NCBI GenBank assembly: GCA_000934665.2
Contig: JYFJ02004459.1
Location: forward strand, 1-32,489
DNA from: Catajapyx aquilonaris
Taxonomy: Eukaryota
DNA: 32,489 nucleotides
Reading direction: 5' to 3'
The notes under the pieces are model-generated. The model searched no databases. It saw only the letters and a list, made by a program, of their open reading frames with translations, and was not told where the DNA came from. Below are positions 15,190-21,394 of this stretch, piece after piece. Every line of letters starts with the position of its first letter. The stretch's first letter is position 1. The position numbers and the translations under genes were made by a program.

Positions 15190-15415
15190 CTATTCTAAGA
15201 CTACGTTCGAGAGAGTCCCTGCGACGTCCTTGCCAATGTTGGCCGAGATGTTTTGTAGGGCCAACTTGGCCTGCTCAGCCACATGTGGATGATCCGAGCT
15301 CCGTAAAGTGACCAGGTGGGGTACTGCTCCTCCTGTCACCACTGCCTTGGCGTGATCAGATCTCCCCGCCGCAATTTTGGCCAGTGCCCCTGCTGCCTCG
15401 AACTGTAGCCCAGGA
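15190..15415 (-). CDS. Importin-alpha-like exon (ARM2-ARM3), not in ORF track
   Basis: Direct translation PGLQFEAAGALAKIAAG...EQAKLALQNISANIGKDVAGTLSNVVLE*. Confidence 0.8.
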
Positions 15416-18400: not shown

Positions 18401-21394
18401 CTCAACAGTCCCTGTGTTATCATCACATAATCTATCACCGTATTTGGCTGGGACGAACAAAATGTACTGTACATTCCCCCTTCCTGTCTGACTGTGAGTA
18501 CGATATCCCGTTCAACATAAACATAGAGTTTGCATCTAAAAATTGAATCAGCTTCTTTCCCTTTGTATTCATTTCCTTATCTTTTGAACATCTCCGATTT
18601 TGAAGTGGCAAACCTTCTTCAATATCATAACAAGCCGATTGGCACTCTTCGCCCACCCGAGCATTGAAGTCACCCATTAACATTATTTCATAATTTTGCT
18701 CTTGCCAGTTCATTACCACCGTTTCCAGTCCGCATAACTCAACTTCCATGTTTGCCGATGGTGGCAAATATACTAATCCTACTAGTAGTTGGGGAAGGTT
18801 GGGAACCACTAATGCAACAAAAATGTACATCTGGCTTGAATAACACAACTTCGGTTTCCACTGTTTCTTTACCATTAACGACATGCCGCCCTTAGGGCGC
18901 CCCATTCTTGCAGTTTTTGTTGCTTTAACTTGGAAATAACACCAATCACCCTTCTCTATTGACTCACAACACTTCATGTCCCATGTCTCCGTTAATCCTA
19001 TAACTTCCAGATTCGATGTAGCCTCACAACTCACACTTTTTGCTTCGTTTATGCTCATCCCCGCCACATTCCACGCTGCTGCTCCAAATACCATATTGGT
19101 CCGATGCAACAGATCTTCTTGAGAGATGACTAGTCTTTTATCATACTGATTCTCACACTACACTACTTGCGGATTATTCACTTCCTCCACTTCTGGTAGA
19201 GGCTTCTTTTGAGCCTGGACACTAACACTTACATCCGCAATTTCATCCCGTTTCACCACACCCCTTGCCCAGCAGATACCACATTCATAAGACCAGTCCA
19301 ACCCTCGCATGATCCTCTTTTCCACCTGTTAATCTTCATCAATTCTTGTATCTGGAGCCACTCCTCCTTTTGATTTCTGCGGCTGTTGACCTTGTGGTGA
19401 TTGCGAGGCTGGTAGCTTTGATGAGGATCCAGAACCTCCCCTGGTTGATGCACCGTACTGCACACCTTCATCCTGGTGTCGTCGTTCCCGAGGCTGGCCT
19501 TGGGGCCCATCTATCACACCATCCTTCAATTGATCCAACGTGTAAAAACACCCATTAATTCTTGCCCGGTCCCGACGCATTACTGCCATCTTGCCCTCTT
19601 CCTTAGCTCTCTTCACATAAGGCCAGAGTTGACGCCTTATTTCCCTCGTCTGTACCGAGAAGTCTTCTGACAGCGACAGTTCCGAATTCTTCAACCTTCC
19701 TGCGTTGGCCAGTATCGCCTCTCTATCCTTAAAAAGCATGCAATGAAGTATAATGGGGCTTAGGTGTCCCTGCTGCAGCCTTCCGAGTCGGTGACATCTC
19801 TCCACTGATAAGTTATAGTCACTAGCAATGATGCCAAAATGACGAAAAACCTTCAGTGCTATATTCTCGGTTTTGGCCCATGATTCTTGGCCATCCGGCC
19901 CCACCCCAAATAGGATCACGTTCTTTCGGCGACCCCTGTCTTCCATCTCCGTCACTTTTCGCTCCAACACTGCCATTTGACCCTTTACCACTTTCAGTTC
20001 TTCCTCCGCCGCACCCAGCCGGGTCCGGACCACCACCAGTTGTTCCTGGATAGCCTCAGTCACCACTTTGGAGATCTCGCTCTTCATTCTCAGCACCATC
20101 CTCTCTTCTACACGTTGCAGTAACACTTCTATCTCCTCCACTGAGGCCCCCATTTTTCCTTCGAATTTTCAACCCCTTGGGGTGGATTCACGAAAGGTCG
20201 TGAGTCAAATTTTCGTCGTAACCATGGTTACAATAATTAACTAACTATGGTTACGACCGGTTACGACGAATATTTGACTTACGACCTTTCGTGAATCCAC
20301 CCCCTTATCTCTTACTCCGGAGCTCCGCCAAACTGCGTGCTTGCGCAGCCGTGTCTGAATGGGAATTGTAGCTCAGAACTGAAAACAATTGAAGGGTTTG
20401 ATGGAAAGACAGGATAAGTGCACTTACTTTTGTTACTTGCGAGAAAACAAAGAAAAACTGAATTCCAGGAAAATTTTTAAAATGTTTCTCTTCATAATTT
20501 TTTGTTGAGTAGGATGATAGCAAAGTCAACATGCACCAGAATATGAAGTTTGTATGATGCATATTACACATTATACAGTGGAGTATAATGTGGACAAGTC
20601 TTGTTTTTGCACCGAATGAGAACGAGACATGTCCAAATAAATTATTTTTGTGTGTATGTTATGAGCATGGAAAAAAAATAAATCTCAATTTCATAGGCAA
20701 ACGTAGTGTTACAAACTCATCACCTAATTCATCATCACTCTGCTCAGCTACACTGCAGGGCTTTATCAATTTCAAGATGGCGCCGAAATTTTGATTTTAA
20801 TATAACTCAAAGTTCGCTCCTTTTGGGATATTTTGAATGGGCCTCCAAATGAAGCGTGAAATGTGTGCTTCGTGTTTCCGAAAAGTCTAGGTGACGACTT
20901 TTGGAATTTCACCCGCTAATATAGAGGGCAAAAACGCAGCCGGTTTGCGCTCTGGACAGTAGCTACGCTGGTCACTTGGGAGGCCTACGTATTATTTTCC
21001 CCAGTGGACTACACGACAGGTCTTATTTTCGTAGTACGCCAAACGATGCAGTATGGCCACAGGATGGCAGAACCACCCTACCCATAACTAATTTCCGGTC
21101 AAAAGTGGACTTGACCGGTTTTTCCACCAAACCCTTCAATTACAAATTGACGGTTCGAACTTGGACATTTATACACATTAATACGTACTTGTCAAATCGG
21201 GGCAGGAGGCTCACCAACAGGGGCACAATAGCCTCACGCTGAAGCATGGCGTCAATGCGAACGTCCATGGGTGTAATAGGGTTAGCTTCACTGACTGTGA
21301 GTACCATCCTAACATCCCTGATGCTCTCCAGTAACTGGATGTTACAATGGATTAATTCCATCTCCCATCCTGCAAGGGAACTCGAACTGGACAT
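15190..21394 (-). CDS. Truncated, divergent importin-alpha (karyopherin alpha) derivative, 143 aa, ARM1-3; join(21394-21189, 15415-15190); may be a pseudogene
   Basis: GAC AA|gtacgt ... tttcag|T CCT GGG joins IVPLLVSLLPRFD-N-PGLQFEAAGALAKIAAGRSDHAKAVVTGGAVPHLVTLRSSDHPHVAEQAKLALQNISAN, matching importin-alpha LQFEAAWALTNIASG..GAVP..EQAVWALGNIAGD; no internal stop or frameshift. Confidence 0.75.
16248..16601 (+). mobile_element. tRNA-derived SINE (family A) inserted in the LINE RT
   Basis: A-box tggtgctgcgg, B-box gttcgatccc, A-rich tail, TSD acaatatcat (16238-16247 / 16602-16611); removal restores FADDIVILASN. Confidence 0.9.
17192..17552 (+). mobile_element. tRNA-derived SINE (family B) inserted in LINE ORF2
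   Basis: A-box tggccgagatgg, B-box gttcaaatcc, (AAAT)n tail, perfect 15-bp TSD tactaagatctcaat (17177-17191 / 17553-17567); removal restores WIEILVTPIHK. Confidence 0.92.
19329..20153 (-). CDS. LINE ORF1 protein (coiled coil + L1-ORF1-type RRM/CTD)
   Basis: Heptad region followed by EDRGRRKNVILFGV, ERCHRLG, PIIL..DREAIL and SEDFS.QTREIRRQL; intact 274 aa. Confidence 0.85.
   Translation of the reverse strand: MGASVEEIEVLLQRVEERMVLRMKSEISKVVTEAIQEQLVVVRTRLGAAEEELKVVKGQMAVLERKVTEMEDRGRRKNVILFGVGPDGQESWAKTENIALKVFRHFGIIASDYNLSVERCHRLGRLQQGHLSPIILHCMLFKDREAILANAGRLKNSELSLSEDFSVQTREIRRQLWPYVKRAKEEGKMAVMRRDRARINGCFYTLDQLKDGVIDGPQGQPRERRHQDEGVQYGASTRGGSGSSSKLPASQSPQGQQPQKSKGGVAPDTRIDED
20179..20303. 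mobile_element. Harbinger-like MITE (125 bp) in the LINE 5' UTR
   Basis: ~45-bp TIR GGGGTGGATTCACGAAAGGTCGT(g/a)AGTCAAAT(t/a)TTCGTCGTAACC; 3-bp flanking duplication CTT. Confidence 0.85.

Follow-up and report, generated by a model that had tools for sequence, protein, structure and literature searches.

Does the importin-alpha-like locus of Catajapyx aquilonaris code for a small protein that selection has kept, or is it the transcribed remnant of a dead gene copy? The locus lies on the minus strand of the 32,489-nt stretch of contig JYFJ02004459.1 (assembly GCA_000934665.2) that was analysed here and that we call the window; all features are given on this strand unless stated otherwise. The original prediction had joined two exons in phase into an uninterrupted open reading frame, and the translation of the joined exons agrees with this: 21394-21189 and 15415-15191 join in frame and give 143 codons that are open throughout, beginning with the ATG at 21394, and codon 69 (AA|T) is divided by the 21189|15415 junction. 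The exon end at 21189 is followed by GTACGT, and an acceptor (...tttcag) precedes 15415. The two exon products, P0002 of 68 aa and P0001 of 74 aa, are predicted to form a joint product of 15.2 kDa. Junction, coordinates, frame and codon number thus stand, but the transcript has four exons rather than two.

This architecture is seen in one 735-nt contig of the public run X1, which maps to 21679-21558, 21444-21189, 15415-15191 and 15087-14957 with GT..AG at all three gaps. The blocks explain the contig fully (122 + 256 + 2 + 225 + 130 letters, no other letters) at a depth of 22.3, and its exons are identical to the locus except for one extra A in a nine-T run (minus strand) at 14977. A contig that falls on four GT..AG-bounded blocks implies that the proposed 21189-15415 junction exists in a spliced molecule. 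The non-coding leader, exon A (21558..21679; contig letters 1-122), has the donor GTAATG, and the start of the contig at 21679 need not be the 5' end of the transcript. It is followed by intron 1 (21445..21557; 113 nt, GT..AG), which is spanned at the joint 21444/21558 (CT..AC on the plus strand) at depth 22.3. Exon B (21189..21444; letters 123-378, translation P0002) holds 50 nt of leader, the ATG at 21394, codons 1-68 and two nucleotides of codon 69. Intron 2 (15416..21188; 5,773 nt, GT..AG) is crossed between letter 378 of the contig, at 21189, and letter 381, at 15413; the pair of letters in between fits 15415-15414, and the alignment is cut at the repeat 15414-15456, so that this joint has no row of its own. 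Exon C (15191..15415; letters 381-605, translation P0001) supplies the third base of codon 69, codons 70-143 and the TA of the stop codon. Intron 3 (15088..15190; 103 nt, GTAAGG..AG) has its joint at 15085/15189 (CT..AC, cut shifted by +2), again at depth 22.3. Exon D (14903..15087; letters 606-735) contributes as its first base the G that completes the stop, and its remainder is 3' untranslated region; the contig ends at 14957, 49 nt short of an ATTAAA at 14908-14903.

The joined form in X1 might be DNA, i. e. a processed retrocopy elsewhere in the genome and not a transcript of this locus. What speaks for this is the record of the run: for X1, no library type is recorded, and X1 was the one run that the search returned, with no holder of the locus listed as RNA. 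We regard this reading as extremely improbable: X1 (85,611 contigs, 31.8 million letters) leaves unique intron and intergenic DNA uncovered and has one SINE piece at a depth of 2,442, a pattern typical of a transcriptome, the exons of the contig match the locus but for a single homopolymer letter, and a retrocopy would itself presuppose that this spliced mRNA occurs in germ-line cells.

A stop in frame with the mini ORF lies upstream, within exon A. The leader also carries a 36-codon upstream ORF (ATG 21681, second in-frame ATG 21663, TGA 21571-21569). The stop codon is not a plain TAG inside the exon but is formed by TA|G across 15191|15087, with no effect on the length of the ORF. Since the stop sits on the last junction, nonsense-mediated decay of the message would not be expected.

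Which protein family does the frame derive from? With a profile built from 19 canonical full-length importin-alphas, residues 20-127 of the mini protein align as a single collinear domain to profile positions 87-186 (81.1 bits), i. e. to importin-alpha ARM1-3. P0001 matches the PDB chain 1ejl_I (E 4.1e-20, 74.3 bits, query 3-58 on chain 67-122, ungapped), natural importin-alpha chains of the PDB match it in a single stretch at E of about 3e-20 to 6e-20, and Pfam Arm (PF00514) is recognized in residues 20-58 (E 1.3e-7, 31.8 bits, cut-off 20.6). Among the 1,450 stop-to-stop ORFs of at least 15 aa in the whole window, P0001 is the only significant match to the profile (E 7.6e-18), and the similarity to importin-alpha is therefore not due to chance. 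The best named matches, P0017 and P0062, are fish 'importin subunit alpha-1', i. e. KPNA2-type proteins. The segment from ARM2 helix 3 through the whole of ARM3 (15241..15414, codons 70-127), which aligns without gaps to 1ejl_I 67-122, has 27-34 identical positions of 57-58 residues (47-58% protein identity). By its sequence, P0001 is a member of the Arm superfamily and descends from importin-alpha as against other ARM proteins. A search of the window against Rfam at gathering thresholds gave no match.

Exon B, whose coding part extends from the end of the IBB-ARM linker through ARM1 into ARM2 (helices 1-2), is strongly diverged and carries inserts of 3 and 5 residues. Its product alone reaches 4.0 bits against the profile, a score that was beaten by one of 200 shuffles, and it has no match at E<=10 in the PDB or, extended ORF included, in Pfam. 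Its alignment is collinear, falling on profile positions 87-124 directly ahead of the 128-186 of exon C; with mini residues 20-68 placed on profile 87-126, seven of the ten columns conserved at >=84% are kept. In the column conservation table made with hmmalign, 27 of 40 columns conserved at >=84% are kept, a signal that the fold is retained; the LQFEAA motif is present.

The changes in the remaining columns bear on the function that importin-alpha is known for. In the major NLS-binding site, Trp142/Asn146, Trp184/Asn188 and the P2 pocket formed by Gly150, Thr155 and Asp192 are the contacts, as described in the part of the structural literature consulted (PMC3858281). Five of these seven contacts are replaced in the mini protein: W142G (G78, codon 15388-15390), N146K (K82, 15376-15378), T155A (A91, 15349-15351), W184L (L120, 15262-15264) and D192N; G150 (G86) and N188 (N124), both within codons 70-127, are kept. 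For this numbering we take chain 1ejl_I to begin at residue 70, which agrees with the W, N and T columns of alignment A1 (23 rows). In A1, columns W9, N13, T22 and W51 are each conserved at >=90% and are occupied in P0001 by G, K, A and L; the consensus has D after GNIAG where P0001 has N. The proposed changes of WALTN, SEQT and WALGNIAGD at W142, N146, T155, W184 and D192 are thus real, and the predicted protein appears to lack the major NLS site.

Are these losses directed at the groove? The contacts are changed more often (5 of 7) than the other columns conserved at >=84% (6 of 24), with a one-sided Fisher p of 0.037 in a test picked post hoc on small counts; the value is 0.076 without D192, which falls outside the local HMM alignment. 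The changes in the two H3 helices fall on the Trp-bearing face (mean directions -10 and -47 degrees from Trp; resultants 0.81 and 0.47; exact p 0.020 and 0.120, joint 0.009), small numbers again and a test chosen after the pattern was seen, and the core-facing residues of these helices are retained. Moreover, the segment from ARM2 helix 3 to ARM3 has a charge of +1 as compared to -2 to -6 in canonical importin-alphas: The groove now has Lys at 146, Arg at 151, Lys at 183 and Asn at 192, and both Trp residues are gone.

The mini protein lacks far more than its NLS contacts. (i) No ORF of the window (1,450 ORFs) matches the IBB region, profile positions 1-86, significantly, the mini ORF begins in the linker before ARM1, and the in-frame stop in exon A lies ahead of it; the proposed absence of an IBB domain is thereby confirmed. 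(ii) The protein had been thought to consist of ARM1-3 only. These repeats are indeed present (81 bits), but the last 16 residues (codons 128-143, 15193..15240; NIGKDVAGTLSNVVLE) form an ARM7-helix-3-like remnant: In most of the 19 canonical proteins, the ungapped window that fits them best (BLOSUM62) falls about 165 residues past the Trp of ARM3, as exemplified by NIQKEASWTLSNITAG in P0017 (score 33). The mean best score of 24.8 compares with 15.7 +/- 2.4 in 500 shuffles, two of which reach 24.8, and alternative windows score 14-18 in ARM4, 12-17 in ARM3 and 15-27 in ARM8 (six proteins); exceptions are P0030, which picks the ARM4 motif, and P0033, in which the ARM3 reference motif was not found. 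A tail that matches ARM7 helix 3 points to an internal deletion that removed about 165 residues and left the frame intact. In this tail, the Trp has become Gly, Ser-Asn of the minor NLS site are retained, and N128 also occupies the D192 position. (iii) ARM8-10 are absent. Of the ten-repeat array, only ARM1-3 and the helix-3 remnant of ARM7 are left, and with ARM6 and ARM8 missing the minor NLS site (ARM6-8: Ser360, Asn361, Glu396 and others) is reduced to this same remnant. Beyond exons B and C, the 1,450 ORFs of the window contain no further importin exon; exon D, which is acid-rich in another frame, was considered together with all other ORFs as a C-terminus, IBB or ARM4-10 remnant and gave none. 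Three separate losses (the IBB, ARM4 to ARM7 helix 2, and ARM8-10) look like erosion and not like a clean design.

These losses limit what the protein could do. Without the IBB, importin-alpha can neither bind importin-beta nor auto-inhibit, without ARM10 there is no CAS recycling and no Nup50 release, and no classical basic NLS is held once the Trp/Asn ladder and the lysine pocket of Gly150-Thr155-Asp192 are lost. Since all these elements are missing from its deduced sequence, a role of the mini protein as an import adaptor is ruled out. Experience with designed ARM proteins suggests that a stub of some three repeats that lacks natural caps may fail to fold. The AlphaFold2 model of P0001, which covers the exon C product alone and is guided by the canonical rows of alignment A1, has four confident helices at a mean pLDDT of 87.1, with values of 91-96 over residues 1-60 in an ARM helix pattern. 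The tail is modelled as a low-confidence helix (pLDDT 53-62), and a complex prediction with the exon B and exon C products as separate chains scored 0.04 and counts neither for nor against the proposed product.

We propose that the locus arose as a lineage-specific copy of an importin-alpha gene, of KPNA2 type by its best named matches, and has since been eroded. The copy would have lost the IBB exons and ARM8-10, and ARM4 to ARM7 helix 2 would have gone by the in-frame internal deletion, leaving the linker end, ARM1-3 and ARM7 helix 3 in a four-exon, canonically spliced transcript. Purifying selection would have held the frame and the helix cores after NLS binding had been given up, be it in the present form or in a longer ancestor, and the product would be, now or until recently, a small soluble ARM stub whose re-charged groove binds a ligand other than a basic NLS, or nothing. 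To this reading of a maintained small ARM protein as a whole, we assign a probability of about 0.5. The weak recognisability of exon B (4 bits) and the orphan tail helix, with its low model confidence, count against it. That erosion has here given rise to a new small protein, with three ARM repeats selected as a 15-kDa module and the re-charged groove binding an acidic or non-NLS ligand, is an unlikely, more specific version. Such a protein might act as a modulator of nuclear transport or take part in germ-line conflict, by analogy with what has been proposed for the fly karyopherin duplicates; the suggested role as an adaptor or decoy is a guess.

How much can be concluded from the open frame? 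If the 13 of 40 near-invariant columns that are changed reflect neutral drift, they correspond to about 0.19 substitutions per site. At this divergence, the simulated probability of having no stop is 0.15 and that of having no frameshift is 0.04 to 0.001 at assumed indel:substitution ratios of 1:20 to 1:10, figures for which the indel rates are assumed and the locus's own sequence stands in for the ancestor. Should the truncation be recent, with most of the divergence already accumulated by a longer ancestor that was functional, the open frame would be uninformative on the present form. The most serious alternative is one that we consider quite possible although short of even odds: The locus may be a transcribed relic, a dead fragment of a once functional, fast-evolving importin-alpha paralogue with a product that has no role, in which promoter and splice signals survive and the frame is open through recent truncating deletions or luck. 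Substitution-only simulations give a probability of 3-29% for the absence of stops, depending on the divergence assumed, which is not negligible over many windows. The independent losses of the IBB, of about 165 internal residues and of ARM8-10, with no other importin exon among the 1,450 ORFs, fit a relic, as do the retroelements in the long intron, the upstream ORF in the leader, and the protein collection searches, which gave no orthologue or annotated protein: Neither the exon B nor the exon C product has a scored relative in a collection of 5.8 billion proteins, and the Atlas search returned generic Arm clusters only. By contrast, neutral decay does not predict that the changes in near-invariant columns cluster on the groove face while the cores are kept. 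Moreover, every indel seen is in frame (the inserts of 3 and 5 residues and the internal deletion), the three introns are canonically spliced, and the stop is placed where message decay is not triggered. The original prediction had favoured repurposing over random decay; the groove-biased changes (p=0.037; joint 0.009) and the open ORF speak for this part of the claim, whereas the three losses look like erosion.

The surroundings of the coding exons add to this picture. Intron 2 consists mostly of a degenerate non-LTR retrotransposon in the same orientation as the gene, with ORF pieces at 15637-20168, a reverse transcriptase domain (RVT_1, E 2.6e-28) at 16544-17251 and an Exo_endo_phos_2 match under the cut-off (20.5 bits) at 18435-19157. 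Two tRNA-like SINE pieces with the core repeat D4 lie inside the retrotransposon at about 16250-16500 and 17200-17440. The three losses, a sense LINE with SINEs in a 5.8-kb intron and the 36-codon upstream ORF are consistent with a decaying locus. About 5.8 kb downstream, an acyl-CoA synthetase/FATP-like gene begins on the same strand (first coding exon 8624-9115); on the upstream side, the locus is flanked by a multi-exon gene. The position of the FATP-like gene and the upstream ORF in the leader would suit an RNA that acts as such, either by regulating the message of the parental importin-alpha or as a non-coding transcript upstream of the FATP-like gene, with the ORF being incidental. This is very unlikely: The X1 contig ends 49 nt ahead of the ATTAAA, no X1 contig connects exon D with the FATP-like gene (13500-22500 compared), the ORF takes up 59% of the contig (432 of 735 letters), and at 47-58% protein identity the nucleotide similarity to the parent is probably too low for antisense or small-RNA pairing.

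To our knowledge, almost all known IBB-less extra copies of importin-alpha come from Drosophila. Duplicates of this type are mostly retrogenes or partially processed retrocopies, are enriched in testis, and have been linked to male germ-line function and genetic conflict. The copies alphaKap4, alphaKap5, alphaKap6 and alphaKap2A-H are fast-evolving and lack the IBB, some are 'partially processed' with one parental intron retained, and their ARM repeat array is preserved, with importin-beta-independent transport discussed as their role; a survey of 51 insect genomes reports no such importin-alpha duplications for insects outside Diptera (PMC8645118). The C. aquilonaris copy resembles them as an IBB-less arthropod copy in which one long exon fuses far-apart parental segments while introns, here three, remain. 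Unlike them, it keeps about three repeats and not the full array, and the NLS contacts are lost. If true, the more specific version, with a selected 15-kDa module, would extend the fly phenomenon beyond Diptera and to a much smaller architecture. In the literature on N-terminal truncated forms and intron positions, we found no importin-alpha form made of ARM1-3 only. With canonical importin-alpha alpha-1/KPNA2 (mouse, PDB 1EJL/1IAL; fish P0017 and P0062), the mini protein shares ARM1-3, ARM7 helix 3 and the H3 cores, but it has 143 aa as against about 520-530 and is without the IBB, ARM4 to ARM7 helix 2, and ARM8-10. If it is under constraint, it would rank as the smallest importin-alpha derivative in nature to show signs of constraint, and the gene would be a natural test of the minimum of ARM repeats that make a stable ligand-binding unit; if it is a relic, it would be a clean case of a deletion-riddled fragment in which a promoter, an open frame and three functional introns have survived.

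Two further systems offer comparisons. Sd of the Drosophila Segregation Distorter is described in the same survey as an expressed, truncated tandem duplicate of RanGAP that acts through what it has lost (PMC8645118). Like the mini gene, it is a truncated and expressed duplicate of a nuclear-transport gene; Sd retains enzymatic activity and has a proven genetic effect, whereas the mini protein is known here from its sequence and the spliced contig. Importin-alpha-16/KPNA-4-16 from Spodoptera and mammalian cells, of which the first description came from an insect, is, in the cited account (PMC3093325 citing Saksena et al. 2006), a membrane-associated, IBB-less protein of about 16 kDa with a non-classical role. 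It corresponds to the last 16 kDa (the C-terminal repeats) of importin-alpha, and its ligand is a basic sorting motif. Both proteins are naturally small, of similar size (15.2 kDa for the mini protein) and devoid of the IBB. The mini protein, in contrast, corresponds to the N-terminal ARM1-3, has a less acidic groove and comes from a separate eroded locus rather than from an isoform, and thus represents a different type.

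On the minus strand, the animal DNA of the window carries a small importin-alpha-derived gene that is found in a spliced molecule. From an ATG at 21394, an open frame runs down to 21189, where it is followed by GTACGT, and it is resumed at 15415 behind a pyrimidine-rich tract and CAG; joined by coordinates, the products of exon 1 (P0002, 68 amino acids) and exon 2 (P0001, 74 amino acids) give 143 codons and 15.2 kDa. We aligned contigs of the single sequencing run returned by the run search (X1, library type unrecorded) to positions 13500-22500. A contig of 735 letters with a depth of 22.3 was placed, with zero differing letters, on four minus-strand blocks, exons A to D: 21679-21558, 21444-21189, 15413-15189 and 15085-14957. 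The gaps of 113 and 103 nt show CT..AC ends, i.e. GT..AG on the minus strand, and settling the 2-nt ambiguity at the block edges by the GT..AG rule places exon C at 15415-15191 and exon D from 15087 downwards. The middle joint is absent from the alignment rows, which split at a repeat (15414-15456); since contig letter 378 is 21189 and letter 381 is 15413, exactly two letters lie between them, which fit 15415-15414 and thus join 21189 to 15415. The junction postulated in the original prediction is therefore present in a spliced RNA or a copy of one. The ORF length of 143 codons also held, whereas the TAG stop does not lie inside the exon: its G is spliced out, and the first G of exon D restores a TA|G that straddles the last junction. 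The leader contains one upstream ORF of 36 codons, and an ATTAAA is located 49 nt past the contig end. With unique intron DNA almost uncovered and a SINE piece at a depth of 2,442, X1 looks like a transcriptome. Should X1 be DNA, the contig would have to derive from a processed copy, for which the same spliced RNA would still have been required; this retrocopy reading and a role of the RNA only are, even jointly, improbable.

P0001 matches the Pfam Arm family (1.3e-7) and natural importin-alpha chains of the PDB (about 4e-20; single ungapped stretch, query 3-58); designed ARM proteins head the PDB ranking only because of repeated matching. A search of 1.84 billion proteins gave 1,629 at E<=0.001, the closest single stretches (60% and 59%) belonging to P0103 and P0143, two short unnamed ORF calls that both carry the normal Trp/Asn motifs. 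An AlphaFold2 model of P0001 alone, with pLDDT values of 91-96 at residues 1-60 and 53-62 in the tail, shows compatibility with the ARM fold, the model being steered by the 22 canonical rows used as alignment input. Against a profile of 19 full-length importin-alphas taken from the library search, the joined product yields one domain of 81.1 bits, its residues 20-127 being placed on profile positions 87-186 and its exon 1 part containing inserts of 3 and 5 residues. Exon 1 by itself reaches 4.0 bits, bettered by 1 of 200 shuffles, and matches neither the PDB nor Pfam; it aligns at exactly the expected profile place, keeping 7 of the 10 well-conserved columns there, and we accept it, on this alignment, as a very diverged ARM1 plus ARM2 helices 1-2. 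Among the 1,450 ORFs of at least 15 amino acids in the window, that of exon C is the only significant profile match (7.6e-18) and that of exon B ranks fourth (E 0.66); the same search gave no trace of an IBB domain, ARM4-10 or the importin-alpha C-terminus.

NLS contact residues were mapped via the importin-alpha chain 1ejl_I, which we take to begin at residue 70, in agreement with the conserved W, N and T columns. According to PMC3858281, they form the pockets P2 (Gly150, Thr155, Asp192), P3 (Trp184, Asn188) and P5 (Ser105, Trp142, Asn146). The mini protein has G142, K146, G150, A155, L184, N188 and N192, and Thr where Ser105 stands. Two tests, both devised post hoc and with few positions, point the same way as the groove-biased change claimed originally: (i) in exon C, 5 of 7 contacts are replaced versus 6 of the 24 other columns conserved to at least 84% (one-sided Fisher p=0.037; p=0.076 without D192), and (ii) the changed positions of ARM2 helix 3 (142, 145, 146, 149) and ARM3 helix 3 (183, 184, 187, 190, 191, 192) have helical resultants of 0.81 and 0.47 (exact p 0.020 and 0.120; joint 0.009) and point to within 10 and 47 degrees of Trp, respectively. 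In both helices the core-facing residues are unaltered, and the segment carries a net charge of +1, where six canonical proteins used for comparison carry -2 to -6.

The original interpretation finds partial support, in the changed groove and the spliced transcript, but its restriction to ARM1-3 is incomplete. The last 16 residues (NIGKDVAGTLSNVVLE) were rejected as a collinear ARM4, their best match being elsewhere: in the majority of the 19 canonical sequences it lies, ungapped, about 165 residues past the ARM3 Trp (e.g. NIQKEASWTLSNITAG in P0017, score 33), the exceptions being P0030, which prefers the ARM4 motif, and P0033, which has no detectable ARM3 reference motif. The mean best score is 24.8 as compared to 15.7 +/- 2.4 for shuffles (n=500), two of which attain it; in the six proteins listed, helix-3 windows score 14-18 (ARM4), 12-17 (ARM3) and 15-27 (ARM8) against the tail. 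The matched position is ARM7 helix 3, which contributes Ser360 and Asn361 to the minor NLS site (PMC3858281); the tail retains this Ser-Asn and has Gly at the Trp position. The copy would thus have formerly extended at least as far as ARM7, before an in-frame loss of about 165 codons. In P0103 and P0143, the similarity to importin-alpha ends directly after GNIAG, as expected if the source genes have an intron there, and the ARM3|ARM7 joint coincides with this end. This suggests a fusion of exon-level or RNA-mediated origin, which would be comparable to fly duplicates that PMC8645118 describes as partially processed, with one parental intron retained.

Is the open frame maintained? Near-invariant columns are changed in 13 of 40 cases. 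If this were neutral drift since canonical constraint ended, it would correspond to an overall amino-acid identity of about 67% with the ancestor and about 0.19 substitutions per site, at which 143 simulated codons stay free of stops with a probability of 0.15 (3-29% under other assumed divergences) and free of frameshifts with 0.04 to 0.001, assuming indel-to-substitution ratios of 1:20 to 1:10. Selection on the frame may have operated in a longer ancestor, with possibly recent truncations, and we give a transcribed relic a substantial chance, if one short of even. Our favoured reading, with a probability of about 0.5, is that the locus maintains a small ARM protein which does not serve as an NLS adaptor. 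The two in-phase exons, the 143-codon ORF and the changed NLS residues were all found as predicted, and the four-block spliced contig and the ARM7-like tail extend this picture; it concerns a single locus, known from sequence alone, that is really expressed and has changed in a non-random manner.

The closest known systems are the IBB-less duplicates of flies and importin-alpha-16, and neither fits the mini protein. According to PMC8645118, the fly duplicates are mostly RNA-mediated with a full ARM array, and none is reported outside Diptera; importin-alpha-16 is, according to PMC3093325, a 16-kDa C-terminal form. In contrast to both, the mini protein has the N-terminal three repeats and a remodelled groove, a form for which the literature searched contained no example.

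Intron 2 (5,773 nt) consists mostly of a degenerate same-strand non-LTR retrotransposon (15637-20168, minus strand; RVT_1 2.6e-28, endonuclease piece under its cut-off) with an ORF1-like frame of 279 amino acids and a reverse transcriptase broken across several frames. Within it lie two tRNA-like SINE pieces (about 16250-16500 and 17200-17440; common core AAGGTCCCGGGTTCGATCCCCACCCGGGG), one being that with the high X1 depth. A 45-nt inverted repeat (20179-20223/20259-20303, 96% complementary, 35-nt loop), also in intron 2, adjoins the 5' end of the first retrotransposon ORF just outside. Further upstream, some 400 nt away from the first known exon, 22100-23000 is probably a young foldback or MITE-like element, judged by its 163-nt inverted repeats (22100-22262/22838-23000, 99% complementary, 575 nt apart), between which lies an AT-rich array of alternating 12-/17-nt spacing. 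A promoter-like stretch (21895-21960, minus strand), some 220-280 nt before the start of the contig, contains a TGACGTCA palindrome, a putative initiator-like CATTCAGTG and a putative inverted CCAAT-like box GATTGGCC. In another frame, exon D (14957-15087, minus strand) encodes an acid-rich stretch (…QEEADEAEKEDEEGD…) that recalls the acidic importin-alpha C-terminal tail but does not match the canonical profile. Seven or more long open frames (27553-31406, minus strand) that lie upstream of the mini gene, seemingly exons of one gene, have no Pfam match at E<=0.01. Likewise without a Pfam match is an open frame that harbours a tandem repeat (25212-25387, plus strand; 39-nt unit, 4.6 copies, 91% matches) translated as copies of YGYEQPKYEEKQS. 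Downstream of exon D on the same strand, at a distance of about 5.8 kb, lie exons of an AMP-binding gene (4149-5351 and 8624-9115, minus; Pfam AMP-binding 2e-14, motif YTSGTTGLPK), probably of the fatty-acid transport protein (FATP)/very-long-chain acyl-CoA synthetase type.
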